Origin: a virus | Strand: one strand, 5' to 3' | UHGV virus genome: UHGV-0293664 | DNA length: 64,000 nucleotides | In this document: one piece after another, positions 1,375-48,109 of the stretch | Position numbering within the stretch: position 1 is the stretch's first letter | Layout of the letters: each line of letters opens with the position of its first letter | Made by a program: the position numbers and the translations under genes | Notes under the pieces: generated by a model | Database searches by the model: none | What the model saw: only the letters and a program-made list of their open reading frames with translations | What the model was told of the DNA's origin: nothing

Positions 1375-4300
1375 TGCCAATTGCAATGATTGATAACATC
1401 GTTGCTTCTGCAAGATCTTCAAGTTATGACTGGAACGCATCCAAGGCAGCTCTGGCTGACAGCCTGAACACTGTTACCACCAGAACTCTGGATAAGATTT
1501 TTGAGGGCAACAAATCTTACAGAAGTCAGCAAGATAGACAAAAGCTTCTCAGATCTTCTGCTGCACCCTGCTCTGTAGTGTATGGGAAGACACGCACATC
1601 CGGATTGCTTGCGTTTTTGGAGCAGGACAGAGACAGAACCCTCCATTGTGCTATTGTTCTTGCCAATCATCCTCTAGAAGGTATAGAAGACATACTCATC
1701 GACGGTAATCCTATTTCCTCGTATGGAGATCTGGTATCGTGGGAGCTACATAACGACAGAAAAACATCTGATCCTTTCATGGGTACACACTGCCCATCAT
1801 GGTCACCTGACATGATAGGTAGAGGGATCAGTTGGCTACGTGCCAGCTTCAGGTTTGACCCTAACAAGTTTCCTTTTGGGTTGCCAAACGTTACACTCGT
1901 TAAGGTTGGTAAAAAATGCTATGATCCTCGCATCAGTAAAGAGGTGTATACCAATAACGCGGCCTTGGTGATTCTAGACTATTTAAGAACGTACCTTAAA
2001 TGTCCTGACGAAACCATCAACTGGGAGTCCTTCAAGGAGGCTGCTAACATATGCGACGAGGCGGTAAAAAACGCAGACGGAACCAGTGAGCGCCGATACA
2101 CCATTAATGGCGAGTTTGACATGGACGAGGCTCCGGCAAGCATTATGGCAGAAATGCTGAAAGCTTGTGGCGCAGATCTCAGCTATGTAGCTGGTAAGTA
2201 TGGTTTGCTGGTTGGTGCATACTATGGCCCGGCAACAATGACGCTGAGTGAGGATTGTGTCTGTGGTGAGGTTAAGATCTATCCGGAAGCCTCGTTTGAC
2301 AAAAGATCCAACACAATAACTGGCAGATTCACCAGTCCGACCAAAGGGTATTCTGAAACAGATTTTCCATCAGTGTTTGTCCCAGAGTGGATAGAGAAGG
2401 ATGGAGAAAGAAAGATAATCGATATAGACTACCGCTTTGTTACCAGCCCTTATCAAGCTCAGCGTGTTTCTGCAATATTTTTAAGACGTGCTAGAGCTGG
2501 CAGGATTATTGAAGTCACCTGCAATATGCGAGGTTTTAAATTTAAACCTGGCCGTTACGTTACAATGAATCTCCCAAGTATTGGTATAGTGGGCCAAGAA
2601 ATGAGGGTTCTTGAGTGGGAGTTCACCAAAAAGGGCGGTGTCAAGGTAAAACTTCGTCAAGATGCTAAAGAGTGGAATGATGCCACAGGGCAACTTCCGG
2701 ATTCTGGCGATGTAGATATTCCGATATCCCCATCCGGTGTAGCTCAACCGCAAAACTTCAGATACTCCGTCCTCCAAGCTGGGGAAATAACTCACGGTGT
2801 TCTGGCTTGGGACAACGTTGGGACTTACGCTCAAAATATTGTGCAGGTAAGAAAGAACGGAGAGATTGTTTGGACAGCACAGACAGTTGAGCAGTTTGTC
2901 CGAGTAGAAGGCTTGACCAAAGGGTCATACACAGCAACCGTGGTTGCAACATCCTATAAAGGTGGTGTATCTCCAGAAGCGTACTGCGAGTTTAACATTC
3001 AGGCACCTGAAGCTCCGGTTTCTGTAGAGGTTAAGCAGGGATATTTCGCTATCACCTTGATTCCGCATAGTAGGGATTTAGCAAGCGTAAGCACCCAGTA
3101 TGACTTTTGGACATCTGGTATGACAAGGTTGCCAGACACCAGTGATGCTACCGTTACTTCAAAAGCCACCCGTATGGGTGTTGGTTCAACTTGGACGTCT
3201 GAAGGTCTCCAGAACGATAAGGTTTATTATTGGTATATTCGAACCACAAACGCTTTTGGTAGCTCTCAGTTTGTAGAATGCGCTGCACGCTGCTATACCT
3301 CTATTGAGGATTTGATGCCTCAGATAGATGCTGAATTCAAAAAGACAGAAACTTATAAAGAGTTGATGAGCACTTTGGATTCCTCTATTGAAGAGGTTGA
3401 AAATCGTGTCACAGAACTTAACAGGTACATGGATGGTAGGGTAGATGAAGCGTTCCAACAACTTGGGGACAGAATAGGTGCGGTAGTTACAGAAACAACT
3501 CAGAAGTTTGAAGATGTCAATGGTAACATTACAGCGCTGGATAGGAAACTTGTTGCTGCACAGAACAAATTCACCAACGATCTGAACACTGAAAGTGGCA
3601 GACTGGCATCTCTGATCGAGACAACCAATAAAGCAACTACTGATCTTCTGAACAAAAAGACAGAGGCTTTAGATGAGAAATTGGTTGCCGCCAAAGGTGA
3701 GCTGGTAGAGCAGATAGAGGGAGTTGAGAGCGGGTATTTAGCCGGAGATAAAACTCTGGATGGTAAGATCAATACTCAGAGAACAGAACTTGACGCAAGC
3801 ATCTTGAGCACTAACCAGGCAACTGTGGATCTTTTGAACAGGACATCTGAAACTCTGGATCAAAAGATCAGTCAGACAAACGCGACGGTATCTAAAAACT
3901 ATACCACCCTGGATGGCAAGATAACCACCGCAAAAACTGACCTCAACACCTTGATTGCCAATACCAACAAGGCCACCACTGACTTGTTGAATCAGAAAAC
4001 ATCTGCACTGTCAGAGCAGATAACTTCTGCACGTGGGGAGATTTCTACCAACAAGCAGGCGATTGATGCTTTGGATGGAAAACTGACTTCCACAAAAACA
4101 GCGCTGGATGCTACAATTTCCGATACCAACAAAGCCACTGTGGACCTTATCAACGGCACAGCGTCAGCTATTCGTCAAGAACTTGCTGTTGCTAAGCAGG
4201 AGATCATTGATGATGTTGGGGATGTGTCCGAGATCAGGGCTGCAGTAGCTACAACATCTAAGGCTGTAACCGACTTGGAGGGTAAAGTAAATGCTCAGTG

Positions 4301-5255: not shown

Positions 5256-5284
5256 TTGACTATTGTTACAAAATTTGGTAAAAT
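5256..5284 (+). promoter_or_regulatory. sigma70-like promoter
   Basis: TTGACT, 17-nt spacer, TAAAAT. Confidence 0.55.
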
Positions 5285-24429: not shown

Positions 24430-24693
24430 TCAGAAACCCTCTAAAAAGCTCTTGTAGAAAACAATCTCAGTGTCCACACCAGTCACAATCTTGTCGTTCC
24501 TGATTTCATCGGTAAGATAGGTGTCAAAACGCAGAACCTGTGTGGTGTTGTCACACATCCACTCAGCTGTGACCATTGCGAAAATCTTAGCATCTTCATT
24601 ATCCGGTGTAAATGTTACCACCTCACCGCATTTAAACTTTTCGATAGGTTGAGTGTTAGCTTTCGGCTCTGCGATAGTGATTTTTGTGGTCAT
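24430..24693 (-). CDS. Small protein, tandem paralog 3
   Basis: 87 aa; CGEVV and FD motifs shared with neighbours; start overlaps upstream stop. Confidence 0.5.
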   Translation of the reverse strand: MTTKITIAEPKANTQPIEKFKCGEVVTFTPDNEDAKIFAMVTAEWMCDNTTQVLRFDTYLTDEIRNDKIVTGVDTEIVFYKSFLEGF

Positions 24694-24956
24694 TATTCTC
24701 CTCCTTGTTTTGAATAGCTTGTCTCTCCAAGGATGGTAATTTTGGTATCAAGCTCTGTAACTTTCATGTTTGGTGGCAGATCGTACAACTCCTTATTTTC
24801 TAAATCGAACCCCCACACACAATGTTCTCCTGTTTTGACAATCATAACTATGTTTTGAATGCCGTCTCCGTCGCAACTTACCACGGTCCCACACGGAAAA
24901 CTATCTGCACGCTTTTTGTTCTTCACCTTAGAATTGAATACAATGCTAGTAGCCAT
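24693..24956 (-). CDS. Small protein, tandem paralog 2
   Basis: 87 aa; MAT...K.KK...GTVV...WGFDL...VTELD...ILGE shared with paralog 1. Confidence 0.55.
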   Translation of the reverse strand: MATSIVFNSKVKNKKRADSFPCGTVVSCDGDGIQNIVMIVKTGEHCVWGFDLENKELYDLPPNMKVTELDTKITILGETSYSKQGGE

Positions 24957-25219
24957 TATTGTTCCTCCACCATAACTTCGCCAAGAATTTCTATGCAGGC
25001 ATCCATTTCTGTAACAACCAAGGTGTGAGGTAGTTCTGCAAACACCTTTCTGAACAGGTCAAATACCCCAACATATATGTTTGCAGGATGTGATTTTACA
25101 ACAAGTGCTGTATTCACATCCCCAAGTTCATCAACAAACATCACCACAGTGCCTGGAGCTACTGAAGACAGATACTTCTTAGTTTTACGGTTTGATGCAA
25201 ATTTTAACTCTGTTGCCAT
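24956..25219 (-). CDS. Small protein, tandem paralog 1
   Basis: 87 aa; AAGGAGG RBS; same length and motifs as paralog 2. Confidence 0.55.
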   Translation of the reverse strand: MATELKFASNRKTKKYLSSVAPGTVVMFVDELGDVNTALVVKSHPANIYVGVFDLFRKVFAELPHTLVVTEMDACIEILGEVMVEEQ

Positions 25220-25234
25220 AAATAATCTCCTCCT

Positions 25235-26716
25235 TTATTTAGCGTACTCGATTAATTCCACAGTTTTCCCAAAGCTCGGGATATAATTTTTATTATACCC
25301 CTCGGTGAGAACCCATAAAGTATCGTACTTTTTCCACTTGTTGTCAACAGCCTTTTGTTCAAAGTTATGCTCAAAGTATAGGTCGGTCAGGACGATGACA
25401 TCTTTTGCATTCGGTATATTGGCATCCAGATACTCGAACACGCAAGCAGCTGTTGTGCCCCATGTTGAGTGGACCTCATAGTTGATCATCTCATCTATGT
25501 TACCGCGAGTGTATACTTTAACCTCTCCAACCTCAGTTGACCAACAGAACATTGTAACCTTAAACTCTTTATACAGATTGCACAATCCGGTGATTTCATT
25601 GAACATTTTCTTTAAAGTTCTTTGAGAGATCGAGCCAGAAACGTCTAAAGCCACCACAATATCTATGGTGTTTTCCGGATTACGACCAGGAACAATAACG
25701 TGCTGGTTCTTGTTTATAGCCCCAACTTTTCGCATTGTGCTGGTCAAAGACCCAGATCGGCGACCAGGTTTTCTGTAGGTCAGTTCAGCCTTTCGTTTAG
25801 ACAACATGCGTTGCTTAATGATATCTATATAGTTGATTACAGGCTTGCCTCTGTTCTTGACAAACTCACGCACCGCCTCAGGGCAACGACCTCCGGAAGC
25901 TTGCATTGCTGCCTCCAGCATGTCACCAGAATCCTGCATGGCCTGATCTTTATCAGATTGGCTGATTACAGGTTGTGGCCGATCATACCCCATAGCCTTC
26001 CCAAGATCATCGCTGGTGCCACCGTTCCCGCTCATGTGATCATCGGTTTGTCGCTTATCTCCTTGGGAGTTATCACCTTTACCGCTCTTACTTTTACCGT
26101 TATTTTGATCTCTTTGCCTATCAAGAACTGCATAGACGTTCTCAGCAATCCATCCATGAAACTTCATGTCGCAGTAGCAGCTGGCTAAGAAACCAAAAGG
26201 CTTACCTTTTACGAACGTAGTGCTTTTCCCCTTCGGGAAGAAAACACAAGGGGGCTTGCTAAAGTCAACCACAAGACCTGTGTTGATAACGTGATCACAA
26301 GCAATATTGAACAGTTCCGGCTCAAAGCTTTTGCCACGGACCAGGTGATCACAGATAATATGCCCCACCTCATGTGACAGAAGGAAAGCCACCTCTTTCA
26401 CAGATTTGGGGGAATAGAAAACTTCAGCCATCTCAAACTGCTCTCCAGTTAGAGAGGCCTTGAGAATAGCCTTGCGTTCATCAGCCAACCCCATAATGAA
26501 CTCAGGACTGTAATAGATGCGTTTATGGTCGGTTGCCATGGTGGAGCACCATGTGTGGTTTTCTACGAACTGTAACCCTGACAGCAGTGTGCCATAAAAC
26601 GGCAGCTTTTCAAGGAGATACATACGTGCAGCCTGTAACATTCTCAGGGCATCATCTTTCTGTGAGGCAATGATTTCTGAACTTCTGCTATCCATTAAAA
26701 CTCCAGAAGGGGCCAT
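25235..26716 (-). CDS. vWA-domain protein with N-terminal zinc-metallopeptidase motif
   Basis: 493 aa; HEVGH (HExxH) and VVALDVSGSIS (MIDAS DxSxS). Confidence 0.7.
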   Translation of the reverse strand: MAPSGVLMDSRSSEIIASQKDDALRMLQAARMYLLEKLPFYGTLLSGLQFVENHTWCSTMATDHKRIYYSPEFIMGLADERKAILKASLTGEQFEMAEVFYSPKSVKEVAFLLSHEVGHIICDHLVRGKSFEPELFNIACDHVINTGLVVDFSKPPCVFFPKGKSTTFVKGKPFGFLASCYCDMKFHGWIAENVYAVLDRQRDQNNGKSKSGKGDNSQGDKRQTDDHMSGNGGTSDDLGKAMGYDRPQPVISQSDKDQAMQDSGDMLEAAMQASGGRCPEAVREFVKNRGKPVINYIDIIKQRMLSKRKAELTYRKPGRRSGSLTSTMRKVGAINKNQHVIVPGRNPENTIDIVVALDVSGSISQRTLKKMFNEITGLCNLYKEFKVTMFCWSTEVGEVKVYTRGNIDEMINYEVHSTWGTTAACVFEYLDANIPNAKDVIVLTDLYFEHNFEQKAVDNKWKKYDTLWVLTEGYNKNYIPSFGKTVELIEYAK

Positions 26717-26728
26717 TGGCCCCTGTTA

Positions 26729-27718
26729 TTATTTAACGTGTTTGAAAATACCTGCCAACTCGGTCATTGTCATGCGGGTGGTCTTCATAAGATCTGTCAT
26801 AGCTTTCTCCATAATTGGGGATACTACCATAAAGTTTCCTTTAGTGAAACCTTTATTCCAGTCGGTCACCAACAGTGGTTTAAGTCCAGCTCCGAGACGT
26901 TCACCAGTTAAAGCACAACATTTTCGAATGTATGTGCTCTTAAACTGGCTGAATGACAGATCCACTTTCATACCTGCATCGTAGAACGTCTGGCAATAGA
27001 AAGTGTAAGCTTTGGCAATCTCAACATCGTCAGGCAGTGCAGGAACCTCTTCTGTAAGCTCTTCTTCGACCCCTTGAGGCTCTTTTTCCTCTTCGTAAGC
27101 CTGTTGCGTCATCTCTTCAATCTCCTCTACTACAGGCTCGTTTACAATGTCAGAAATGTGCTTGTTGGCTCCACGATTAGCCATGAAGTTTTTAAAATCC
27201 TGCATTGGTGACATATCTTCCTCCCATTCTTCGTCAAAGAGTGCCAGTTTATCCTCTTCCGTTCCATATTGCAAGATGAAATCTTCAAAAGTGTAATCAC
27301 CTTTCAATTTCTCCATACGCTCTTCGCTCAGGTGGAGCATCATCTGCTGGACAATTTTTCGATCAGTTTTGTCTTTAATCAAGACTGCGGTCTTTTTATC
27401 TACCAGACAGTCCTTTAGAGAGTTGCATCTCAACCCTACCACACAACAGTTATCAACCGCATAAGGGCCTTCATCATCTATCCGCTCTAGAGATGGGTAG
27501 AAAGGATTTCCCAGTCCGTTTTCATCCGTGTGCATGTCGAAAGGTATAAGGGTATAGTCGCATACTCCATCTCCTAAAAGTTTTTTACCAAATAGGAGAT
27601 ATTCTTCCCATGACAGGTTGAACTCTATATCTCGTTTCCGTGCATTATTCTGTTTGCGTCTGTATTTTTTGAGCAAGCGCTCTAACTCTTCTGGTGTATA
27701 ATATTTTTCAAGATTCAT
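26729..27718 (-). CDS. Putative HNH-like (endonuclease VII-type) nuclease with acidic linker
   Basis: FNLSWEEYLLF...C...ERIDDEGPYAVDNCCVV module, weaker second copy; ATG 27718 preferred over in-frame TTG 27784. Confidence 0.4.
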   Translation of the reverse strand: MNLEKYYTPEELERLLKKYRRKQNNARKRDIEFNLSWEEYLLFGKKLLGDGVCDYTLIPFDMHTDENGLGNPFYPSLERIDDEGPYAVDNCCVVGLRCNSLKDCLVDKKTAVLIKDKTDRKIVQQMMLHLSEERMEKLKGDYTFEDFILQYGTEEDKLALFDEEWEEDMSPMQDFKNFMANRGANKHISDIVNEPVVEEIEEMTQQAYEEEKEPQGVEEELTEEVPALPDDVEIAKAYTFYCQTFYDAGMKVDLSFSQFKSTYIRKCCALTGERLGAGLKPLLVTDWNKGFTKGNFMVVSPIMEKAMTDLMKTTRMTMTELAGIFKHVK

Positions 27719-27749
27719 GAGTTGTCTCTTGTGCTCTGTGGGTGGAGAA

Positions 27750-27778
27750 ATCTTACCAAGGGCCTGGGAAGATGTCAA
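27750..27778 (-). promoter_or_regulatory. sigma70-like promoter for leftward operon
   Basis: On minus strand TTGACA, 17-nt spacer, TAAGAT. Confidence 0.5.
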
Positions 27779-27791
27779 CCTCAAAAACGTG

Positions 27792-27820
27792 TTGACTTTA
27801 CTCTAAATCCTCGATATAGT
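27792..27820 (+). promoter_or_regulatory. sigma70-like promoter for rightward operon
   Basis: TTGACT, 17-nt spacer, TATAGT. Confidence 0.6.
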
Positions 27821-27860
27821 GCACCCATTCGAAAGAAAACTAGCATAGGAGTACTTATTC

Positions 27861-28760
27861 ATGGCAAATCTTAACAGTTTTAGCACCAGGTGGCAACAGG
27901 ATATAACAACCAATCTTTCAGCTGGAGATATCCTTTCTGCAATTTACGAGGCTTTGGATGATAAAGCTACTTCAAGATCGGTTTGTACTAATCCGCTAAT
28001 TCCTATAGTGATGAAGGTAATTGAGCGGAGGTTGGTATCCGGGTCTGATAAGTGGACATACCTTGATAATGGAGGGCATACTTACTCCAACGGATATGTT
28101 GATATAAAAGTGGAATACGCAGTATCATACCGCCGGAGCGGTTCTGTAACTTTCAACTTCTCTGGAGGTTTTCGATCTCTGGCTACTTCACCTTTTGTTT
28201 CCTCAGAGGAGAAGTATGAGCTGCCATTTCTTTGGATGATGGCTAACGCGACAGGAAAAACCCCCGTTAGCATCCGAGTAAAATACAACTACAACGGATC
28301 TAGTAAGATCTATGCCGAAAGTGCCTCAGCAAGTTTTTATTTTGTGATGGGGGATGGAATCCTCAAACATATAAAGATGTGCGATATGCATGATGTTATA
28401 AATGAAGTGACTGATAAGAATGTTCTAGTGAAAGACCTCAATAATTTTTATACACCTGGAGACTATTACGTCAACCGCCCACTGTGCATCTTTAATGCCG
28501 CACACCCTTTAGGTGAGTATTTGATCGCCAATAGCGATATTGCCAATAACCGCTTCGAGGTAGCAAGAGTACAGAATGAGGTATTGACATCTTGCAAGAG
28601 CGGTGATAAGTTTACCGAAGAAGAGATGGGTGTTTTAGAAATGATGGGATATAAGTGTAGCCTTTGGGTAGATGAGGTGTTTAATGACTGCATCTATGGA
28701 CAGGATATTTACCCGTTAAAGAAGTATACTGATTCCAGTTTAATTTACGCGGAGATTTGA
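27861..28760 (+). CDS. Hypothetical protein
   Basis: 299 aa; AGGAG RBS. Confidence 0.55.
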   Translation: MANLNSFSTRWQQDITTNLSAGDILSAIYEALDDKATSRSVCTNPLIPIVMKVIERRLVSGSDKWTYLDNGGHTYSNGYVDIKVEYAVSYRRSGSVTFNFSGGFRSLATSPFVSSEEKYELPFLWMMANATGKTPVSIRVKYNYNGSSKIYAESASASFYFVMGDGILKHIKMCDMHDVINEVTDKNVLVKDLNNFYTPGDYYVNRPLCIFNAAHPLGEYLIANSDIANNRFEVARVQNEVLTSCKSGDKFTEEEMGVLEMMGYKCSLWVDEVFNDCIYGQDIYPLKKYTDSSLIYAEI

Positions 28761-28762
28761 CT

Positions 28763-29035
28763 ATGATGAAGTCATGTGGTAGTGTATATTATGTTGGTGA
28801 GAATGTTCAGGCAGACAGCGTGTGGAAATCCATTAAGTCTACCACCGACGATGCCTTCTTGAGCGGGTTATGTTTTCCCAGCCCTGGGGACACTCTCCCT
28901 TACCCTGGAGATTTTGTTGTCAACAAGATGGACGGTTATACCGTGTGCCTGATGGTTGAAAAAATCTTTTTAGACACTAGACACAATCACCGTCTTGTGT
29001 TAAAATTTCAAGAATGTAAAATGACAATTGCCTAA
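28763..29035 (+). CDS. Small hypothetical protein
   Basis: 90 aa; ATG 28763 preferred over track TTG 28757. Confidence 0.45.
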   Translation: MMKSCGSVYYVGENVQADSVWKSIKSTTDDAFLSGLCFPSPGDTLPYPGDFVVNKMDGYTVCLMVEKIFLDTRHNHRLVLKFQECKMTIA

Positions 29036-29048
29036 GGAGGCCTTGCCT

Positions 29049-29405
29049 ATGTCTAAAGTTACGTATCGTGCAGCTATTTACTGCAATGAACACCCAATCA
29101 ATAATGATGGTCACTGCCTTTTTAAAGAAAATCAGTTGGGCTGTATTGTCCTCCCTGATGAAGGGAAAGGTTATCTGATTGCATTGACAGGGTTTGAGCC
29201 TGAAGCTTTGGAAGCCAATCTGGACTACCTGGTAGAAGAGGGTGCTGCAGACCTGGTTGCCAATGGCCTCTCCATAAACCTTGACGAAGTGGAGCGCTTC
29301 ATGGGCAATTACCGTGTAGTGCGTGAGTTTACTATCGAGGTGGAAACTCCAGAGTGGGGTAGCCCTGAAACTAATACCGAAGAAAAAGAAGAGGAGGTAG
29401 AATAA
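29049..29405 (+). CDS. Small acidic protein
   Basis: 118 aa; ATG 29049 with AAGGAGG RBS; Glu-rich C-terminus. Confidence 0.5.
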   Translation: MSKVTYRAAIYCNEHPINNDGHCLFKENQLGCIVLPDEGKGYLIALTGFEPEALEANLDYLVEEGAADLVANGLSINLDEVERFMGNYRVVREFTIEVETPEWGSPETNTEEKEEEVE

Positions 29406-29662
29406 TGAAAGTGCAGATTTTGACTAATGCCGAGAAGATGTTTATTGAAGATACACCTTTTGAAGCTGGTGAGCTACAGTTCGTTTATTTTGTTGACTTA
29501 GATAAGGTGTTCCCTGCACTGAATCTGGGTCTGGATGAAGTTCCTCATAAGGTTTTGTGCCAAGTTGTTCGTGCTTTAGCGGCAGATGGGGAGTTCCACA
29601 CTCTTGAAGATATCCAGACCTACGGGTATCTTGAACTACAACGAGAAGAAGAGGTGGATTGA
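29405..29662 (+). CDS. Small acidic protein
   Basis: 85 aa; TAATG overlap with upstream gene. Confidence 0.5.
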   Translation: MKVQILTNAEKMFIEDTPFEAGELQFVYFVDLDKVFPALNLGLDEVPHKVLCQVVRALAADGEFHTLEDIQTYGYLELQREEEVD

Positions 29663-29664
29663 TA

Positions 29665-30045
29665 ATGGCCCGATGGAAGACAACGGTTGACCTGCATGAT
29701 CAGTGGTTAGGACGCATCACTGAAGACGGGAAACTAGTAGAGTGGGACAATAAACATGTCAGCGAGTTGGCAAGTATTGTGGCTGGCAAGTTACGCTCCA
29801 AGTTCCCTGAACAACTGGATCCTGATAATTCAAAGTTCGATCCTGAGTTGGAGGATGTTGTATACTACTTCGATACCGTGGATGACTACGATGCGTGGTT
29901 TGCAGCACGGGAGCTTTACCCACAAGGCTCCGCTATGCGTCAGATGGAAGAAGATTATCCTCCGTGCGAGCAATTCAATAGCGCAATGACTTGCCTCTAT
30001 GATTGGGCAGATAAGAACCTTGTCTGGATCCGGACTGCATTCTAG
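29665..30045 (+). CDS. Small acidic protein
   Basis: 127 aa; ATG 29665 with GAGGTGG RBS. Confidence 0.5.
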   Translation: MARWKTTVDLHDQWLGRITEDGKLVEWDNKHVSELASIVAGKLRSKFPEQLDPDNSKFDPELEDVVYYFDTVDDYDAWFAARELYPQGSAMRQMEEDYPPCEQFNSAMTCLYDWADKNLVWIRTAF

Positions 30046-30051
30046 CAGGCT

Positions 30052-30354
30052 GTGGCAAGGATGCCACTTAAAAGAGTAATAAGCATGTTATACCAGAAAC
30101 ACAAACTTTGTGCAGAAAAAGAGTTAAATTTTGACAAAGTTATCCACAGATATTGTTATGGGAAAACCGGAAGACAACTAAGAAGGTGTACCCCAACATT
30201 CTTTCACCCCAGTAGACGGCTAAGTCCTGAAGAAGCAACAGCAGAAAGGGTTGCATACAACTGGGAAGTTGTGTACGATATTGACAGATCCGATGTGGCA
30301 TCTGTTTTGGAAAACTTTGAAAACACTTACACACAAGTAGAGGACTTTTACTAA
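30052..30354 (+). CDS. Hypothetical protein
   Basis: 100 aa; start uncertain (GTG 30052 or ATG 30061); stop overlaps AAA gene start. Confidence 0.4.
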   Translation: MARMPLKRVISMLYQKHKLCAEKELNFDKVIHRYCYGKTGRQLRRCTPTFFHPSRRLSPEEATAERVAYNWEVVYDIDRSDVASVLENFENTYTQVEDFY

Positions 30355-31538
30355 TGTCAAGAAACGTATTTGAAAGTGGTCAAATCACTGTCCGTGAGTT
30401 GCCAGCTATCATTCAGTTTGCCCAGCGTCATAACCGATCTGTCCTGATTTTAGGACCAATGGGCGTGGGGAAGAGCCAGGTGATGAAGCAGATTGCCGAT
30501 AATATGTTCGGTGAGCGAGATGACAACCTGGTTGACGTGCGACTGTCAGATAAAGATCCTGCCGACTTATCTGGGCTACCTATCCCTGTAGAAGCGGATG
30601 GAACTACACGTACAGTGTTTGCAATTCCAGAATTCTGGCCTGCAGATCCAGACTGGAGCGGGATTATCTTTCTGGATGAGCTTACTCATGCAGATAACTA
30701 TCTACAAAAGGTTGCAATGCAGATTATGCTCGACCACAAGTGCGGCACCTATGCATTCCCTAAAGGCTCTGTTTTTGTGGCTGCGGGTAACCGTTCTACA
30801 GATGGTGCGGTTCTTTCGGCGCTCGAAGCCCCTCTGGCTAACCGTTTTATCATTGTAGAAGTTACAAGCAATGCAGAGGTGTTTATTGAGGACTACGCAT
30901 TCCTTAATGGGGTGCATTCCTCTGTAATTGGGTATCTGAAAAGAGTTCCATCAGCTATCGATAATTATGAGGCTATGGCTGAGATTAATTGTCCATCTTT
31001 TGCCACACCGCGATCTTGGGTTGCTGCATCTGACATCTTGCACGATTTTGACAGCGGTATTATTTCTGACGCTATGGCCCGTGTTCTTCTGCAAGGTGCT
31101 ATTGGTCACACTGCAGCGGTAGAGATCTGGACCTACCACACCAAGAAACGCAACTTACCGGAAATCGGTCGGATTATGGCAGGGGGTTGCAAAGAATACG
31201 TAGGTCCTAAACAGCCAGACATTTTGTGGATTCTTGGATCTGAAGGTTGTATCGCTATTCGTAATATGATGGAAAATGCAAGTATCTCCGACGAAGATCT
31301 TGTCAGCTGCGTGGCAAACTTCCTCGATTTCCTTTGGGAAAACTTCAAAGACGAGAACCGAGATTTTGTATTCTCAGTCTTTATGGCGATGATGAAACCT
31401 AATGCCTTAGGAAATGCCTTGCTTATCGGTAAAGGGCGTGACAAGATTGTTGCTCAGCTGATCAAAGCATACCCAAACCTGATGAAGATTGTAAAAGAGT
31501 TTGGTGAAGAGTTTAGCGCCATTTTGGCTAAAGCTTAA
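30354..31538 (+). CDS. AAA+ ATPase, MoxR/CobS-like
   Basis: Walker A LILGPMGVGKSQ, Walker B IIFLDELTHA. Confidence 0.7.
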   Translation: MSRNVFESGQITVRELPAIIQFAQRHNRSVLILGPMGVGKSQVMKQIADNMFGERDDNLVDVRLSDKDPADLSGLPIPVEADGTTRTVFAIPEFWPADPDWSGIIFLDELTHADNYLQKVAMQIMLDHKCGTYAFPKGSVFVAAGNRSTDGAVLSALEAPLANRFIIVEVTSNAEVFIEDYAFLNGVHSSVIGYLKRVPSAIDNYEAMAEINCPSFATPRSWVAASDILHDFDSGIISDAMARVLLQGAIGHTAAVEIWTYHTKKRNLPEIGRIMAGGCKEYVGPKQPDILWILGSEGCIAIRNMMENASISDEDLVSCVANFLDFLWENFKDENRDFVFSVFMAMMKPNALGNALLIGKGRDKIVAQLIKAYPNLMKIVKEFGEEFSAILAKA

Positions 31539-31547
31539 GGGGGTTGT

Positions 31548-31928
31548 ATGGCTAAAGTAGGTAAGCGGGGAAACTACCTGGTGGTATTGACCGAGGAGCC
31601 AGAGAAGGAGTACGAATGCAGCTCCACTTGCGTGATCGATATCCGAGAAAAAGATGTAGATGAAATCTGGTTTGAAATATTAGACGCTTGCGACAGCAGT
31701 GATTATTTCTTCATCTATGTCAACGATAAGGCTGGGTTCTTCCATGACGACGGAGAGTTGCCGTATGAAATCTATGAACTTGTAGAGGCTTGCCATCGCG
31801 GAGATGCGGAGTTGTTTGGCCTACGGCTGAAAAGCGGTAAATTCTTCTATCAAGATGAGTGCATGAATCTTCATAACTTTGTAGAGGGAACTTGCAACGA
31901 TGGAGAGATTTTGGCACACTACGATTAA
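31548..31928 (+). CDS. Small acidic protein
   Basis: 126 aa; Asp/Glu-rich. Confidence 0.5.
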   Translation: MAKVGKRGNYLVVLTEEPEKEYECSSTCVIDIREKDVDEIWFEILDACDSSDYFFIYVNDKAGFFHDDGELPYEIYELVEACHRGDAELFGLRLKSGKFFYQDECMNLHNFVEGTCNDGEILAHYD

Positions 31929-31937
31929 TTTCTAAGA

Positions 31938-31965
31938 CACCCCGCTTCGGCGGGGATTTTCTATT
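31938..31965 (+). terminator. Rho-independent terminator
   Basis: CCCCGC-TTCG-GCGGGG hairpin then T-rich tract; same hairpin as at 5218. Confidence 0.7.
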
Positions 31966-31975
31966 TGGAGTTATT

Positions 31976-32476
31976 GTGAAAATTAAGATCTTTGCTATTA
32001 TTTTGAGCGCATTTTTATCGCTGCCTGTTGTTGCAGCACCAAAACAAAAAGTATATCATACTTGCAAGCCCTCAGATACTAAGGAAAACATTCTGGCATG
32101 CAATATCTACAGGGAAGCTAGAGGGGATGGCACGATGGGTATGCTGGCATCTGGGTTTGCCACACTAAACAGGAAATCTCACCCCAAATACCCAGACACT
32201 ATAAGAAAGATCGTCTACCAACCTAACCAGTTTTCGTGGACAAACCACGGCAAAACTTTTAAGGTGACAGAAAAAGATTCATGGGATCACGCTAAAAGTC
32301 TTGCAAAGATGCTTCTAAAGGTCTATAATAACAACCATGTTGCATACATGGCTATGGATATAACAGGTGGAGCAACACACTACCATACAACCAAAGTACG
32401 ACCGAAATGGGCAAAAAAGATGCAGAGGACAGCTCAATTCGGGAACCATATCTACTACAAGGAGCGCAATAAATGA
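31976..32476 (+). CDS. Secreted cell-wall hydrolase, SleB-like
   Basis: GTG start after GGAG; signal-peptide-like N-terminus; YREARGDG...NR...YQPNQFSW motif. Confidence 0.55.
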   Translation: MKIKIFAIILSAFLSLPVVAAPKQKVYHTCKPSDTKENILACNIYREARGDGTMGMLASGFATLNRKSHPKYPDTIRKIVYQPNQFSWTNHGKTFKVTEKDSWDHAKSLAKMLLKVYNNNHVAYMAMDITGGATHYHTTKVRPKWAKKMQRTAQFGNHIYYKERNK

Positions 32477-34455
32477 TCGTAAACAGTAATGAAACTAAAG
32501 CGGTACTGACCGGGAATATGGAGGTCACCAGGGGCTCAATTTCTCTGAACAAAGAGACTTTTGGGCTAATCATTAAAGGGATTTACGAAGATAAGGTGCT
32601 GGCAAGCTGCCGTGAACCAATCTTCAATGCTGTGGACTCCCATGTTGAGTCTGGACGGGGTGATGTACCGATCATCATTCACTCTCCTACAGACCTTGAA
32701 CCATACTTCTTTGTGCAGGACGTTGGATTGGGCATGTCAGAAGAGATGGTCCGTAACACTTTCATGAACCTCGGGGAGTCAACCAAGCGCAACAGCAACG
32801 CCCTGGTTGGCAATAAAGGTGTTGGTTCAAAGGCCCCGTTCAGCATGGTGGACACTTTCGATGTGATCAGTGTGCACAATGGGGTTGAAAGCACATATCT
32901 ATTGTTCTTGGATCAGGGTATCCCAAACGTTACCAAGATCCGCGAGCGGAAGACCGAAGAGCACAATGGGGTAAAAGTTCAGTTCCATGTTAAGAAAGAG
33001 CATGTTCTGAAATATCGCACTGCTATTGCGTCATGCCTACGCTATGCAAAGTTTCCGTTTACCGTTACCGACCCTATGACCAGTAAGATGCTGGAAGGTG
33101 ACAAGGTTGAGGCGCAGTATCACTACGAGAAGGATGGTTGGAAAATGACCATCCTGAAAGGTTATACCAGCTCTGATGAGAGCCGTGTGGTGATGGGACA
33201 CCAACCTTACCGCTCTAAGTTCCTGGAAACATTGACAGACTACCCTGCAATCTGTGTGGAGATCCCTATCGGGGATTGCAATATTAACCCTGGGCGCGAA
33301 TGGACCATAGAGGGTCACGACGATGGTGGATTCCAAGAGCGTCTGGAGGCTTTTGTCAAAGAGGGTATCCGTCTTCGTGGGGCAGAAGTTGTTGCGGAAT
33401 TGGAAACAGCAAAAACATCCTCAGAAGCACGCGAAATGATGAAGAACAGCGGAGTGTTCGGGCACATCTTCGGTAAGAATTTTATGTGGGAACGATGGGA
33501 AGAGACAGGCCTAGGAAATTTGGGGGACTGTGAGATCTTCGCTGGCGGCTTAAATAAAGGCCGCATAGGTTACGCTTGTTACGGAAAGGTAGAATTCTTA
33601 CGGGGAGTCTATTTAGTATTTAACGACGGAGACGGCAAATATAACCGAAATAAGTGTAACTACTTAAGCGAGATCACCGGACGCAACGTTTTCTATTGCC
33701 GGAACACGGATCTGGTGAAAGAGTTTAAAGAGGCGGCACACCATCCGTTCTTTGCAGATACGATCAAATTGTTATCAGAGCTCCCTCGCCGACCTGCGAA
33801 GAAAGGTGAAACAAAAACTCATTATGAGCCAGGCTATTGGGTTAAAAAACTTGAGGATGATGGTTACTTCCGTCGTGAGCGTATTACTAAGGCAGAGTTC
33901 AAGAAGATTAAGCACTGCATTCCTTATGAGGGCGATATCCAACGTGGAAGTTGTTGGCTGGGACAGCTGAGTAACATCTACCAGCAAAATTATGACCGTG
34001 TGCGTGCGGCACTCCAAATTCCTGAAGGTGAAGATCTGTACTTGGTATCAGAATCTCGTCTGCTTTGGACTGATCCTGATTGCCAGTATGTTACAGAGAA
34101 GAGTGTGGAACATTTGTTGAAAGAGGATGCTTGGAAATTCTTACTGACTCGCGCAGCAAATGAAACCTCATATGACAGCCTGTATAGACAATTAGGGAAA
34201 ATTATCCCCATGCAAGATTTTGGAAATTATCGGCCACATTTCCACAAGTGGGAAGGTAACACCGCGTGGAAGCACAGTGAGCTAAATCATCGTGCCAAAA
34301 TCTTAATCGCCAACCGAGTTAAGTGCGGGAAGGCCTATATTGCAAGATTGGAAAAGAAATATCCACTTTTGAAGCATGTGGGCTTGAAATATTGGGACAC
34401 TCCTGCTATGATTGAATACCGTGAACTGATTGATACAAAGAATAACACCAACTAA
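32473..34455 (+). CDS. rIIA: rIIA-like protein with GHKL ATPase domain
   Basis: REPIFNAVDSH resembles T4 rIIA RELITNMIDAH; DVGLGM and GNKGVGSKA G-boxes. Confidence 0.6.
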   Translation: MIVNSNETKAVLTGNMEVTRGSISLNKETFGLIIKGIYEDKVLASCREPIFNAVDSHVESGRGDVPIIIHSPTDLEPYFFVQDVGLGMSEEMVRNTFMNLGESTKRNSNALVGNKGVGSKAPFSMVDTFDVISVHNGVESTYLLFLDQGIPNVTKIRERKTEEHNGVKVQFHVKKEHVLKYRTAIASCLRYAKFPFTVTDPMTSKMLEGDKVEAQYHYEKDGWKMTILKGYTSSDESRVVMGHQPYRSKFLETLTDYPAICVEIPIGDCNINPGREWTIEGHDDGGFQERLEAFVKEGIRLRGAEVVAELETAKTSSEAREMMKNSGVFGHIFGKNFMWERWEETGLGNLGDCEIFAGGLNKGRIGYACYGKVEFLRGVYLVFNDGDGKYNRNKCNYLSEITGRNVFYCRNTDLVKEFKEAAHHPFFADTIKLLSELPRRPAKKGETKTHYEPGYWVKKLEDDGYFRRERITKAEFKKIKHCIPYEGDIQRGSCWLGQLSNIYQQNYDRVRAALQIPEGEDLYLVSESRLLWTDPDCQYVTEKSVEHLLKEDAWKFLLTRAANETSYDSLYRQLGKIIPMQDFGNYRPHFHKWEGNTAWKHSELNHRAKILIANRVKCGKAYIARLEKKYPLLKHVGLKYWDTPAMIEYRELIDTKNNTN

Positions 34456-35671: not shown

Positions 35672-37041
35672 TGGAAAAAGGGCAGTATGATGTAGGCACA
35701 GATGCTGCCCTTGTTGCAATCATGAGCGGTGAGAATGTCTTCGTTTCAGGACCCGCAGGTTGTGGGAAGACGTACCTCATCAACATGATCCAGTCAATGT
35801 ATGGAGACTCTTGCATAACGGTTGCCCCGACAGGGGTAGCCGCTTTAAACGTTAATGGAGCAACAGCACACCGAACCTTCGATCTTGCAGCAGGTGTGAG
35901 CATGGAGTCAGACTGGACCGCAATAAGGGCAAAAACAGCAAAGCCTTTGAAAAGCAAGGCATTTACCATCCTAATTATCGATGAAATCTCTATGATCCGT
36001 GCTGATAAGTTTATAGAGATGGATAGGAAACTCCGCTTCCTTCGAAAAAATGACAAACCTTTCGGAGGCATACAGGTCATATTGTTTGGCGATTTTTACC
36101 AGGCACCTCCTGTTGTCTCTTCTATGGAGAAGGAGGCCTACTTCAACTTCTACCACACAGACCTATGTTGCTATACCGAATCTTGGAAAGAGCTTGACCT
36201 TCACAACATAGCCCTAATAGACCAGTTCCGACAGGAGTCTATTCGATTTGCCACAATGCTCAACTGTGTTCGTGAGGGTCGTCGCATAAAAGAGGTTGTA
36301 GCAGAACTTAATGCTCGCTGTTACAAAGGCGGTGTACCAACAGACGCTCTCACAATTTGCGCCACCAACAAACAAGCAGAGGAAGTGAACAGAAGGTTCT
36401 ATGATGCCATCAACGCCCCAGAGAAGGTATACACTGGTGAAATGAAGGGTAAGTTTCCCTCCACCCTGCCAGTGGAGCAGGAGATGAAGTTGAAAATTGG
36501 CATGAAAGTTATGATAACCGCCAACGATGTTGACCCGACGCACAAAGTACCTTATTATGTTAACGGAACACGTGCCACAATTGTTAAATTTAAGAACAAG
36601 GCGGTGGTGGTAGAGCTTGAAGATGGAACACAGGTTGACATAGAGCAGAGGTTGTGGGAGAATAACGAGTATAAGCCATCTCAGAGATACAACATTGCAG
36701 AAAGGAAGATGGAGAAGTTTATAGAGAGGGTAGTGATTGGGTCATACAAGCAACTTCCTCTGAAATCTGGGTACGCCGTAACATCTCATAAAAGTCAAGG
36801 ACTTACGTTAGATTGTTACAACCTAGACCTTGGAAAGAACGGAGCTTTCTCTCCTGGTATGACGTATGTTGCTTTGAGTAGAGTTAAGACAATACAAGGA
36901 ATAAACTTGTTGCGTCCACTAAGAGAGGTTGACATTATTGTTGACCCGCGAGTCGTAGAGTTTTACAATACAACATTCCCTGACTTAGACAAAATTGTCA
37001 GGAAAGATTTTGAAACCAGAGCAGAAGAGGGGGACGTATGA
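35671..37041 (+). CDS. Pif1/RecD/Dda-like SF1 DNA helicase
   Basis: Walker A GPAGCGKTY; ILIIDEISM; TSHKSQGLT; ALSRV motifs. Confidence 0.75.
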   Translation: MEKGQYDVGTDAALVAIMSGENVFVSGPAGCGKTYLINMIQSMYGDSCITVAPTGVAALNVNGATAHRTFDLAAGVSMESDWTAIRAKTAKPLKSKAFTILIIDEISMIRADKFIEMDRKLRFLRKNDKPFGGIQVILFGDFYQAPPVVSSMEKEAYFNFYHTDLCCYTESWKELDLHNIALIDQFRQESIRFATMLNCVREGRRIKEVVAELNARCYKGGVPTDALTICATNKQAEEVNRRFYDAINAPEKVYTGEMKGKFPSTLPVEQEMKLKIGMKVMITANDVDPTHKVPYYVNGTRATIVKFKNKAVVVELEDGTQVDIEQRLWENNEYKPSQRYNIAERKMEKFIERVVIGSYKQLPLKSGYAVTSHKSQGLTLDCYNLDLGKNGAFSPGMTYVALSRVKTIQGINLLRPLREVDIIVDPRVVEFYNTTFPDLDKIVRKDFETRAEEGDV

Positions 37042-37379
37042 GTTTGTGGAGAAATATCGTTAACTACGTGTGTGGCAATCCAACCCCTGAAGAGAAGGAT
37101 GTTGTGATTCACGATTTTACTAAAAGATCTCGTGAAAAAGATCTACTGCTAACAAAGGTGACTGATAAAGATCCCGCAGTAGGGGACTGGGCAGGTTTTG
37201 CATTTACATCGGACAAATACACCTTTAACAAAGGTGACTACCTTGTTGTGGATTTTAACGAAGACATTGAGGGTGCTGAACCTTACTATCAGACCCTTAT
37301 TGTTGCAGGGTGTGTTGATCTCTCTGCAGGTATGCACAGTTTGATTCTTTTTGAGCTTGACTCTGAAGACCTTGAGTAG
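37038..37379 (+). CDS. Hypothetical protein
   Basis: 113 aa; ATGA-type overlap with helicase stop. Confidence 0.5.
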   Translation: MSLWRNIVNYVCGNPTPEEKDVVIHDFTKRSREKDLLLTKVTDKDPAVGDWAGFAFTSDKYTFNKGDYLVVDFNEDIEGAEPYYQTLIVAGCVDLSAGMHSLILFELDSEDLE

Positions 37380-37395
37380 TAAGATGTGAGTCTAA

Positions 37396-37413
37396 AGGGG
37401 AGGCACTCCTCCC
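37396..37413 (+). promoter_or_regulatory. Leader or attenuator hairpin
   Basis: GGGGAGG-CACT-CCTCCCC followed by ACAAAAA, no T-run. Confidence 0.35.
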
Positions 37414-37439
37414 CACAAAAACTAAGGAAGCACTAAACG

Positions 37440-37742
37440 ATGAAACGTTATAAACCATACACTTTTGAAATCGATTTCGAACTTGACGATATGTTTACTG
37501 TGGAGGCTCAGGCAGTTGTCCAGTTGCCAGACCCGGAGTGCCGTGATTCTGATGTTGACTATTACGGATTTAGACAAATTACCGATGTGCATGTTTACCA
37601 CAACGGTGAAGAGGTGGACTTCTACAAATTGCCAAACGATATGCGCCACTCAATTTACAAACGTGCAGCCCGTGAACTAGATTCCTATCTGGATGCAGCG
37701 ACGACAGCAGCTGCATTTGCCGAAGAAGTGGGAGGTTTCTGA
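37440..37742 (+). CDS. Small acidic protein
   Basis: 100 aa; Asp/Glu-rich. Confidence 0.5.
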   Translation: MKRYKPYTFEIDFELDDMFTVEAQAVVQLPDPECRDSDVDYYGFRQITDVHVYHNGEEVDFYKLPNDMRHSIYKRAARELDSYLDAATTAAAFAEEVGGF

Positions 37743-38137
37743 TGATTACAGGTGTGAAGATTATCCAATACCACTTAACTAAATTGGAAGATGCTGAAAA
37801 AGAGCTTGCAGAAGTTCTGAACAGTGGATATACTTTGCTATCATGCGCCTGCTCAGACACCTACGCTGTGTGGACACTTACCCGGAAGGAAGAGCCTGCA
37901 TGGATCTTGGTGCCAAACCCTAAGATTATTAGTGAGGTGGATGACTACCCCCAGGACGGCCTGCCAGAAGGCTGGGAAGTATGGGAAGGTGGTGAAAACC
38001 CTGCACCAGGTAAGTGGGTAAAATACAAACTACGTAGTGGTGCACAGTACGCTGACTACTCTGATGACCTAGACTGGAGTCATTCTTCACCAGGATCATC
38101 TGCAAGTTCATATGATATCGTTGCTTTTCAGGAATAA
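37742..38137 (+). CDS. Hypothetical protein
   Basis: 131 aa; ATGA overlap with upstream gene. Confidence 0.5.
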   Translation: MITGVKIIQYHLTKLEDAEKELAEVLNSGYTLLSCACSDTYAVWTLTRKEEPAWILVPNPKIISEVDDYPQDGLPEGWEVWEGGENPAPGKWVKYKLRSGAQYADYSDDLDWSHSSPGSSASSYDIVAFQE

Positions 38138-46137: not shown

Positions 46138-46392
46138 ATGAAAATTACTTTGAAGCCAGAATGCGTTGCAAATGACCGAGCTTTTAAAGATTGCACAGTC
46201 GGTGCAATTTATGAAGCGGAGTTTTGTGAGAACCCTCTGGTAAAAGCCCTTCTGGAAGAAGGGGCCCCTTTATCACAAGAAGAGATTGATGAGCTGGAAA
46301 ACTCAGCACAGTGCCTTACCTTTAAAGATGACGAAGGAGATTCTGTCTGGTGCACTGTTAATGAAGTAGTTTTTGTAAAACCTGAACATTAA
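46138..46392 (+). CDS. Small acidic protein
   Basis: 84 aa; AAGGAGA RBS; FKDDEGDSVWC motif. Confidence 0.5.
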   Translation: MKITLKPECVANDRAFKDCTVGAIYEAEFCENPLVKALLEEGAPLSQEEIDELENSAQCLTFKDDEGDSVWCTVNEVVFVKPEH

Positions 46393-46395
46393 TAC

Positions 46396-46424
46396 TTGAC
46401 AACAGTGATGGGGCCTAATATAAT
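46396..46424 (+). promoter_or_regulatory. Consensus sigma70 promoter
   Basis: TTGACA, 17-nt spacer, TATAAT; -10 flanked by GGGCC/GGCCC inverted repeat. Confidence 0.6.
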
Positions 46425-46455
46425 GGCCCTATCGAAACGAAAGGGGACCACAGCA

Positions 46456-46716
46456 ATGACCAAACAATATCAACGAATTAAAGCCAAGGTTAAGCCAGAC
46501 TATCTGGAAAAGGACTCTGCTTTTCGGGACTGCACAGCCGACAAAGTTTACACAGGGGCTGTCCTGTTGAACGATAAACTTGAAGTAGATGTGCTGGGTA
46601 AAGAGGCCGTTATCGAGGATGACAACGGTGACTGTGTTTTCTGCACCACACGGGAGCTAGAAGTCTTAGAATACTTCGGTGAAATCTTCAACTCCTTAGA
46701 CGACGAGGAAGCGTGA
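46456..46716 (+). CDS. Small acidic protein
   Basis: 86 aa from ATG 46456; track ORF start lies inside the promoter; IEDDNGDCVFC motif. Confidence 0.5.
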   Translation: MTKQYQRIKAKVKPDYLEKDSAFRDCTADKVYTGAVLLNDKLEVDVLGKEAVIEDDNGDCVFCTTRELEVLEYFGEIFNSLDDEEA

Positions 46717-47105
46717 TGAAAAATATTTGGGATATTGATATCTTTGAAGCCTCTAAGCTTGACGGTGCTGATGGAGTGATTATGGTGTCTGACGGCAAGG
46801 CAACACTAACTTCCGGAGATATCATCTATGCCTTGGACGAGCTGGCGCTTCTGAAATCTACCGGTAACACTTTGGAGGAGCGTCTTCAAGGCTTCGCTTT
46901 CAAAGAAGGTACAAATACCGCCATGATGTGCACCACACGGACAGTTCAGGTTGGTAACGGTGTCTATATGATCATTGCGGTGTGTCCTAAATTCAGCAAC
47001 GTCAACAAAGATGATGCTGACGCTGTCAACGATGTGGTTGTTCTCTTCGTGGGTGACGCTATGGCAGATCTGATGAATGCAGGAGAAGCAGCAAATGAAG
47101 ACTGA
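46713..47105 (+). CDS. Hypothetical protein
   Basis: 130 aa; ATGA overlap. Confidence 0.5.
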   Translation: MMKNIWDIDIFEASKLDGADGVIMVSDGKATLTSGDIIYALDELALLKSTGNTLEERLQGFAFKEGTNTAMMCTTRTVQVGNGVYMIIAVCPKFSNVNKDDADAVNDVVVLFVGDAMADLMNAGEAANED

Positions 47106-47397
47106 AAACATCACCCCCGCAGGGTTCTTAAAAGTATACCGTGAACTGCTATATACTACAGAGGACAGCGTTCTAGAGTATCCAGAATATCTTTTGCTGT
47201 ATAAGTATCTGCAGGAGGCTGGTGAAAATCTGCCAGTTAGTGCAGAAGGTGGTCCGAACTGGATATACAGCGCATGGAGAAAGGTTGACATTCTCCCAGA
47301 CCCAGGTAAAGATATGGTAGTTTGGCAGCTTATCAACAACATCGGGATTCCAATCTTTGATGAAGCTGTTAAAATCTATTTTGAACTTGACGATTAA
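47095..47397 (+). CDS. Hypothetical protein
   Basis: 100 aa from ATG 47095 with GGAGAAG RBS. Confidence 0.45.
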   Translation: MKTENITPAGFLKVYRELLYTTEDSVLEYPEYLLLYKYLQEAGENLPVSAEGGPNWIYSAWRKVDILPDPGKDMVVWQLINNIGIPIFDEAVKIYFELDD

Positions 47398-47414
47398 TAT
47401 CAGGAGACCTTAAG

Positions 47415-47660
47415 ATGACTGAAGTAGTTGCTCGCGCAGGACAGAAAGTACGTTGTGTTGAAGTAGGTTTTGGTGGCAAAGGGTGTCAAAACTTGACTCA
47501 AGGTAAGGAATACGCTGTTATTTCTGGTGGTGGCGACGAAAGTATTGTGTTCGAGGGCCACATCCTGGATGCTGAAAACTTTGAAATCTTTGACGACGAT
47601 GGGGATCCGATCACCTGCCTGCTGGACGGGAATTGGGGAACTTTTGAAGTGATTGGCTAA
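47415..47660 (+). CDS. Small protein, dispersed paralog family
   Basis: 81 aa; AGGAGA RBS; FDDDGDPITCL motif. Confidence 0.5.
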   Translation: MTEVVARAGQKVRCVEVGFGGKGCQNLTQGKEYAVISGGGDESIVFEGHILDAENFEIFDDDGDPITCLLDGNWGTFEVIG

Positions 47661-47743
47661 CAAATACCTATTGTAATTTGCAGAAGGGGATGCTAAAATA
47701 GTGTCTCCTTTTATGTTGTTCAAATAAAATCGGAGATTCCATA

Positions 47744-48109
47744 ATGGAACAAATGAACGATCAAACGTCGGTTGCGATGAACGAGCAAGAACAACCTCAA
47801 GAATTTTTCTTAGGGTTAAGTAAAGATCAAGTGTCTCTTCTGCTAGTGCTTTCTTCTTTCATGGGAAGACTTCAGGAGCTTACACAACAGCCAGAGGCTG
47901 AACAATTATTCCAGGCTCTGCGTGAAGAAGAAAAATATCGTCGTTTGGACTATGCCTTAGGTTGGGTAGCTCAACAACGAGATATGCTGATGGCCCTCTC
48001 TGGGACCACAAGTTTTGCAATGGGCCTGTTGGCTCAAGTTCAGGACAAATTAATTCAAGCAGGGTTTGCACACACGGCAAACACTAACGAAGAACAAGGA
48101 GACAAATAA
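47744..48109 (+). CDS. Hypothetical protein
   Basis: 121 aa; stop overlaps SSB-like start. Confidence 0.5.
   Translation: MEQMNDQTSVAMNEQEQPQEFFLGLSKDQVSLLLVLSSFMGRLQELTQQPEAEQLFQALREEEKYRRLDYALGWVAQQRDMLMALSGTTSFAMGLLAQVQDKLIQAGFAHTANTNEEQGDK

Follow-up and report, generated by a model that had tools for sequence, protein, structure and literature searches.

Three small acidic proteins in the rightward operon of an rV5-like Vequintavirus, and the fast evolution of gp008

Among E. coli phages, those of the rV5 type rank with the most frequently isolated, and phage cocktails make use of them. To our knowledge, the majority of their early genes have yet to be assigned a function. In the viral DNA analysed here (64,000 nucleotides of UHGV virus genome UHGV-0293664, termed the window), three consecutive small open reading frames (ORFs) occupy positions 29049-30045 of the + strand, and all three encode proteins rich in glutamate and aspartate. 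A reading made from the sequence alone had described this trio as translationally coupled, had placed it first behind a promoter region at 27792, and had taken its acidity and position as typical of host-takeover or anti-defence factors. The question raised by the locus is how far these features support such a role, and what else about the three genes might indicate what they do.

The locus and its transcription unit

The window comes from an rV5-like myophage of E. coli, genus Vequintavirus; its positions 27000-32000 are 95-98% identical to more than 100 complete rV5-like genomes. Among the database records, sixteen bear the name “Campylobacter phage”, with C. jejuni as host, and are about 95% identical in this region to E. 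coli rV5-like phages; their host labels seem doubtful. The three ORFs are genuine genes and correspond to rV5 gp008 (YP_002003510), gp007 (YP_002003509), and gp006 (YP_002003508), all of which are annotated as hypothetical proteins in rV5 and likewise in the BASEL phage EmilHeitz. The gp008 homologue (29049-29405, +) encodes 118 amino acids and the gp007 homologue (29405-29662, +) encodes 85, the lengths that had been given. The gp006 homologue (29665-30045, +), which had been given as 127 amino acids, encodes 126 from its ATG, or 128 from an upstream TTG.

The trio does not supply the first products after the promoter, as had been claimed, but makes up the third to fifth genes of its operon. 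The first gene is the gp010 homologue (27861-28760, +), which encodes 299 amino acids and has a dN/dS of 0.02-0.04. Its labels conflict across records (“thymidylate kinase”, “fucosyltransferase”, or “alpha 1-3 fucosyltransferase”), with no Pfam support, and its C-terminus is similar to operon gene 1 of phages 4MG and Av-05. The second is the gp009 homologue (28763-29035, +), a near-neutral protein of 90 amino acids that belongs to phrog_12847. Downstream of the trio lie the gp005 homologue (30085-30354, +; 89 amino acids), a small ORF between gp006 and the next gene, and gp004 (30354-31538, +), a MoxR-type AAA+ ATPase with a dN/dS of 0.02. Directly after the MoxR gene comes gp003 (31548-31928, +), which encodes 126 amino acids with a pI of 4.34 and a net charge of -18. 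This protein is extremely conserved (dN/dS 0.01, and 99% identity to the metagenomic relative described below); it has the same length as gp006, yet the two are unrelated. The operon also carries genes for a SleB-like hydrolase and rIIA/B, and the morphogenesis block is distant.

Across the divergent promoter region from the gp004 operon, on the - strand, lies gp012 (25235-26716), a DUF2201 vWA/metallopeptidase gene, which forms with the gp004 MoxR gene a pair split by that region. Further along the - strand, 24693-25219 holds two adjoining ORFs of 87 amino acids that are tandem paralogues (39% identity, E 4e-13), and a third ORF of 87 amino acids adjoins them at 24430-24693.

The promoter region at 27792 was found again by a consensus scan. 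The predicted sigma-70-like promoter TTGACT-17-TATAGT (27792-27820, +; 10 of 12 consensus matches) heads the rightward unit and is the same site as promoter P010 in Table S4 of the rV5 paper, whose authors put forward a transcription unit “10-1-238-164” (PMC3606486). The first strong terminator-like hairpin downstream of this promoter is at 31940 and matches terminator t003 of the same paper (PMC3606486), while weaker + strand terminator-like matches of 5 pairs each occur at 28894 and 31796. The trio thus has the arrangement expected of early genes: a promoter of the sigma-70 consensus type precedes it, and no terminator intervenes. A candidate internal promoter, TAGACA-17-TAAAAT with the extended -10 element TGTTAAAAT (28978-29006, +), was also picked up by the scan. 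This candidate is embedded in the 3′-terminal part of gp009, 43 nt ahead of the gp008 ATG, with its extended -10 at 28998. The stretch that holds it (28930-29026) is near-invariant across 8 phages, and this conservation exceeds what is expected from the synonymous rate of gp009. The TGTTAAAAT motif recurs in the window at 5276 and 11607, which are P036 and P030 of rV5, both proposed as late promoters by the rV5 authors (PMC3606486). We infer the early timing of the trio from the consensus promoter only, and the second candidate promoter resembles the proposed late ones. A literature search found no Vequintavirus transcriptome.

Within the trio, the genes are tightly joined. The gp008 stop and the gp007 start share one nucleotide (TAATG), gp007 and gp006 are separated by 2 nt, and the Shine-Dalgarno sequence for each junction is embedded in the preceding ORF. 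Moreover, the junctions are built from a 22-nt cassette of the pattern AAGnAGAGG...TAATG, which occurs in three copies: AAGAAGAGGAGGTAGAATAATG at the gp008/gp007 junction (29386-29407, +), AAGAAGAGGTGGATTGATAATG at the gp007/gp006 junction (29646-29667, +), and a third copy at the gp005/MoxR junction (30335-30356, +). The overlap, the 2-nt gap, and the repeated cassette therefore make the translational coupling proposed for the trio plausible. In the first copy the gp007 Shine-Dalgarno encodes the gp008 C-terminus ...EEEVE, and in the second the gp006 Shine-Dalgarno encodes the gp007 C-terminus ...EEEVD. This means that the acidic residues at the C-terminus of one protein are set by the Shine-Dalgarno of the gene that follows. 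No Rfam RNA families were found across 26500-32500.

Acidity of the trio within the genome

The description of the trio as rich in glutamate and aspartate is correct. The combined content of these residues is 20-22%, and the pI and net charge are 4.22 and -18 for gp008, 4.26 and -12 for gp007, and 4.40 and -12 for gp006. For negative charge per residue, gp008 and gp007 are within the top five of the window. As a flag of a notable cluster, however, acidity fails. A pI below 4.5 is found in 19 of the 96 crude gene calls of the window and in 27% of those of at most 150 amino acids, and a run of at least three acidic ORFs arises in 45-58% of gene-order shuffles. In statistical terms, the acidic cluster is nothing out of the ordinary for this genome. 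Two more series of small acidic ORFs in a row occur at 37038-38137 and within 46138-48109, and three such runs in one genome are unusual in gene-order shuffles (P ~0.005-0.01). The tendency of acidic ORFs to cluster therefore belongs to the non-structural arm of the genome rather than to the trio locus, and acidity is too common here to be diagnostic of function.

Two further observations concern the acidic ORFs elsewhere in the window. Two of them, at 46138 and 46408, are paralogous to each other (30% identity, E 2e-7), and the most acidic ORF of the window lies at 55529-55870 (31% glutamate plus aspartate, pI 4.05). Paralogy was considered for the trio as well and rejected, since its proteins resemble neither one another nor any further acidic ORF in the window.

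Distribution and divergence of the three genes

Sequence searches of Pfam, NCBIfam, PADLOC, and PDB gave no family match for gp008, gp007, or gp006, and these family searches revealed no enzymatic or structural signature in any of them. In PHROGs the three have full-length matches (E 1e-56 to 1e-79) to phrog_12908, phrog_13124, and phrog_6318, respectively, which are bookkeeping families labelled “unknown function”. A literature search by locus tags, accessions, and BASEL names returned no functional data on the trio genes. All three are under purifying selection, and a more distant metagenomic relative gives similar dN/dS values.

The gp006 family is the most widely distributed. The dN/dS of gp006 is 0.05-0.07, the value among isolates being 0.07, and the protein has the conserved motifs W-K-T-x-D-L-x-D-x-W and P-x-E-x-F-N-x-x-M-x-x-L-Y-D-W-A-D-x-N-x-V-W. 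Homologues occur across the Vequintavirinae, in Seunavirus, Mydovirus, and Avunavirus at 25-38% identity, and phrog_6318 takes in all 21 of the gp006 relatives collected. When 1.8 billion representatives were searched exhaustively with HMMER, only 17 proteins were returned (as representatives at 50% identity), among which no fusions to other domains were found; the true homologues are all stand-alone proteins of 95-127 amino acids. One candidate domain fusion, P0040 (1426 amino acids, with six gp006 matches), was rejected as a repeat protein with a biased “DPELE...YDAW” stretch. Beyond the subfamily, a clear homologue of gp006 is encoded by Vibrio phage 11895-B1 (hhalign 99.5%, E 4e-23). Its gene comes first after an intergenic region between divergent genes, and those for RNase H, primase-helicase, and polymerase follow downstream. 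Comparison of the gp006 profile with PDB and Pfam gave chance-level matches to Med29 and designed helical bundles and, in some members outside the window, ZT_dimer at E 2e-4, none of which was accepted. The matches to helical bundles and Med29 suggest a helical protein, and nothing more. In one record, that of Klebsiella phage K54lambda1.1.1 (OY979426.1), the gp006 homologue on the + strand lies beneath - strand features named “head decoration”, “major head protein”, and “portal”. These overlapping features are all flagged as pseudogenes, and the annotation is apparently displaced or wrong-stranded.

The order of gp006 homologue, small ORF, and MoxR gene is kept in four genera of the Vequintavirinae (Vequintavirus, Seunavirus, Mydovirus, and Avunavirus), and a MoxR gene lies one or two genes downstream of the gp006 homologue in every Vequintavirinae locus examined. 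In the three sister genera the operon opens with a gp010-like gene, and the slot that separates this gene from the gp006 homologue is filled by an HD phosphohydrolase gene and, after it, variable small, mostly basic ORFs. Five loci provide this phosphohydrolase (L004, L005, L007, L009, and L015), and one record calls it a ppGpp pyrophosphohydrolase. The content of the slot differs in the sister genera, so gp009, gp008, and gp007 are fillers of a variable slot, and gp006 is part of a conserved block. The gp008 and gp007 genes are restricted to the genus Vequintavirus: a tblastn search over 50,697 phage records found neither outside it, and a search of 5.8 billion proteins gave 8 clusters for gp008 and 26 for gp007, none below 63% identity.

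The dN/dS of gp007 is 0.04, and that of gp008 among isolates is 0.27. Moreover, gp008 is mosaic. In a 137.6-kb metagenomic Vequintavirus contig (L019) whose gene order is identical to that of the window, a block of about 35% nucleotide divergence covers window positions 29050-29400 (contig positions 3001-3339) and so coincides with gp008, and the flanks diverge by 2-8%. Synonymous sites of gp008 are saturated in this comparison. The encoded protein is 67% identical to that of the window and still has a net charge of -18. Judged from this pattern, the contig carries an exchanged, anciently diverged gp008 allele that arrived by mosaic replacement. A second divergence block takes in gp005 and the spacer that precedes it (30050-30300), and the dN/dS of gp005 is 0.36-0.41. 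Acidity is kept in all members of the trio families, including gp006 homologues that are only about 30% identical (pI 4.1-5.4). That the charge is retained in every family member, and in the 67%-identical gp008 allele, argues that the negative charge of these proteins is selected rather than accidental.

The gp008 gene is also found altered in several ways. A variant with a frameshift and a basic tail (P0005) is present on 6 contigs, and in phage YP-6 a 1-nt indel splits the gene. In a third case (L022, positions 3001-3561 of Logan ERR14928308), a 53-nt deletion between short direct repeats ACTAATGCCGA (window 29370-29433) results in an in-frame fusion of 186 amino acids (P0002), which joins gp008 residues 1-110 to gp007 residues 11-85; apart from this, the locus is intact. 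These frameshifted, split, and fused variants suggest that the acidic tail of gp008, perhaps the whole gene, can be dispensed with under laboratory conditions or on certain hosts. The natural fusion suggests in addition that gp008 and gp007 tolerate being a single polypeptide, which hints at a joint function.

Structure prediction had been proposed as a check by the sequence-only reading. For gp008, AlphaFold2 gave a model of moderate confidence (pLDDT 67, pTM 0.56), with the predicted order beta(2-13)-beta(30-35)-beta(40-45)-alpha(51-72)-alpha(78-85)-beta(88-100) followed by a disordered acidic tail at 102-118, which would contain 8 of the 26 acidic residues. No fold match was found for this moderate-confidence model, and comparison with the N-terminal domain of the HicB antitoxin (e.g. 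PDB 5yrz_C) gave no significant structural or profile similarity. For gp007, a 24-sequence alignment gave a pLDDT of 38, with no confident structure and thus no usable model.

Possible roles of the trio

The favoured reading, to which about half of our belief is given, is that the trio comprises unrelated, genuine, non-structural accessory proteins that are non-enzymatic and bind other proteins, with gp006 being old and conserved and gp008, perhaps with gp007, being a host-interface protein of fast turnover. The three would be translated as a coupled chain, as cistrons 3-5 of a unit driven by the host RNA polymerase (rV5 genes 10-1). They contain no catalytic motifs, and their most likely mode of action would be stoichiometric binding of host, possibly phage, proteins through conserved negative surfaces in the phase before late expression; this mode, like any host target, is something we infer. 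They would not form one functional class. The gp006 protein, strongly constrained and probably helical, belongs to a family (phrog_6318) whose genes are placed close to the start of early or replication operons in several myovirus lineages, and it probably has a core early function. The gp008 and gp007 proteins are the genus-specific fillers of the variable slot, gp008 having the behaviour of a dispensable, rapidly exchanged host-interface gene, and gp007 may act with gp008, given that the two are found naturally fused in frame.

The favoured reading keeps part of the host-takeover or anti-defence role that had been assigned to the trio. A coupled operon behind a host-type promoter, the lack of an enzymatic or structural signature, and the absence of the proteins from the rV5 virion proteome agree with it. 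The sequence-only reading had allowed that the genes might instead be found to encode late structural components in virion proteomics. Mass spectrometry of rV5 virions detected 19 proteins (Table S5; PMC3606486), and no gp006-gp008 peptides are among them, within a limited sensitivity that low-copy components could escape. The variable slot from gp009 to gp007 and the fast, mosaic gp008 also fit accessory proteins of the host interface. However, acidity is not diagnostic here, and what is reported of the susceptibility of these phages to restriction-modification (RM) counts against a DNA-mimic role.

An unlikely but still credible alternative is that at least one of the three, most plausibly gp008 with or without gp007, blocks host immunity by binding or by ligand mimicry, in the manner of Ocr (T7 gp0.3), Arn (T4), and ArdA. 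These acidic DNA-mimic anti-restriction proteins resemble the trio in being small (about 90-170 amino acids), strongly acidic, and free of enzymatic motifs, and in being encoded among early genes behind host-type promoters, although for the trio this timing is predicted from the promoter. Such mimics imitate the phosphate backbone of B-DNA by negative charge set on a rigid surface. The composition of the trio is of that kind (20-22% glutamate plus aspartate, pI 4.2-4.4), but it is shared by 27% of the small ORFs and does not discriminate in this genome, and in the moderate-confidence gp008 model part of the acidic residues (8 of 26) would lie in the disordered tail. Location in a variable accessory slot speaks for this alternative, as does the combination of mosaic hyperdivergence, conserved charge, and dispensable-looking variants in gp008, a typical arms-race pattern. 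Against it, the trio has no sequence or profile similarity to Ocr, Arn, or ArdA, nor any sequence relation to annotated PHROG or Pfam anti-defence families, matching only its own PHROGs of unknown function, and the gp008 model, a predicted alpha/beta core with a disordered tail, has no fold match. The genes are not first in their operon, and gp007 and gp006 are under strong purifying rather than diversifying selection. Furthermore, the protection from type I (and other) RM systems that such a role would confer is not what the literature describes: the BASEL Vequintavirinae are described as “exceptionally susceptible” to RM systems, seemingly without effective protection (PMC8594841).

A bolder proposal, which we regard as doubtful, is that gp008 and gp007 jointly inhibit an immune sensor or effector of the host as two parts of one inhibitor, fast-evolving yet constant in charge and with a fold new to the PDB, and that gp006 is, separately, an early modulator of RNA polymerase or of a host factor, common to the Vequintavirinae and some Vibrio myophages. 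An arms race would then account for the hyperdivergent, mosaic gp008 allele, and a physical complex for the natural gp008::gp007 fusion.

It is improbable that the trio, chiefly gp006 and together with gp005, provides subunits or substrate adaptors for the pair formed by the gp004 MoxR ATPase and the gp012 DUF2201 vWA protein. The adjacency that such a role calls for is found in all four genera examined, and the vWA partner lies just beyond the divergent promoter. Strict co-occurrence is not found: Vibrio phage 11895-B1 has the gp006 homologue, but neither a MoxR nor a DUF2201-vWA homologue was detected across its full 126 kb (tblastn E below 0.01), and a dependence of gp006 on MoxR was therefore rejected. 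In addition, the gp006 family is without domain fusions, and the other genera with a MoxR gene lack gp008 and gp007.

A long shot is that gp006 acts as a core early transcription regulator, which would bind RNA polymerase or sigma in the manner of T4 AsiA and aid an early-to-late switch without T4 gp33, gp45, and gp55. The protein is strongly conserved, small, and acidic, and two lineages of myoviruses have its gene at the head of early operons, each time with an Srd-like gene nearby (gp011 here and VPHG_00073 in 11895-B1). It has also been noted that T4-type late factors are absent from rV5 (PMC3606486). The T4-type host-takeover proteins AsiA, Srd, and Alc are likewise encoded by short, tightly packed early ORFs, and the trio lies near the Srd-like gp011 and rIIA/rIIB. 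However, the trio does not match the PHROG families of AsiA, Srd, or Alc, gp006 has no similarity to AsiA, MotA, or annotated PHROGs, and the argument is one from position alone. Finally, that these are virion-associated or assembly proteins of an internal, ejected, or scaffold-like acidic kind is very improbable: small acidic proteins can be internal head or ejection proteins and the rV5 mass spectrometry was shallow, at 19 proteins, but its tables contain no trio peptides, and the genes are distant from the morphogenesis block, among those for MoxR, the SleB-like hydrolase, and rIIA/B.

What is gained for the trio adds little beyond the annotation “hypothetical protein”. The position of the genes in the operon is corrected, acidity alone proves to be a poor flag in this genome, and gp008 and gp005 stand out as locally hypervariable genes. 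The notable feature of the trio is the unusually fast evolution of gp008, with the natural gp007 fusion as a lead. If gp008 and gp007 were a counter-defence pair, or gp006 an early regulator, a new protein family would be added to the host-takeover repertoire, and this might help explain the host range of rV5-like phages.
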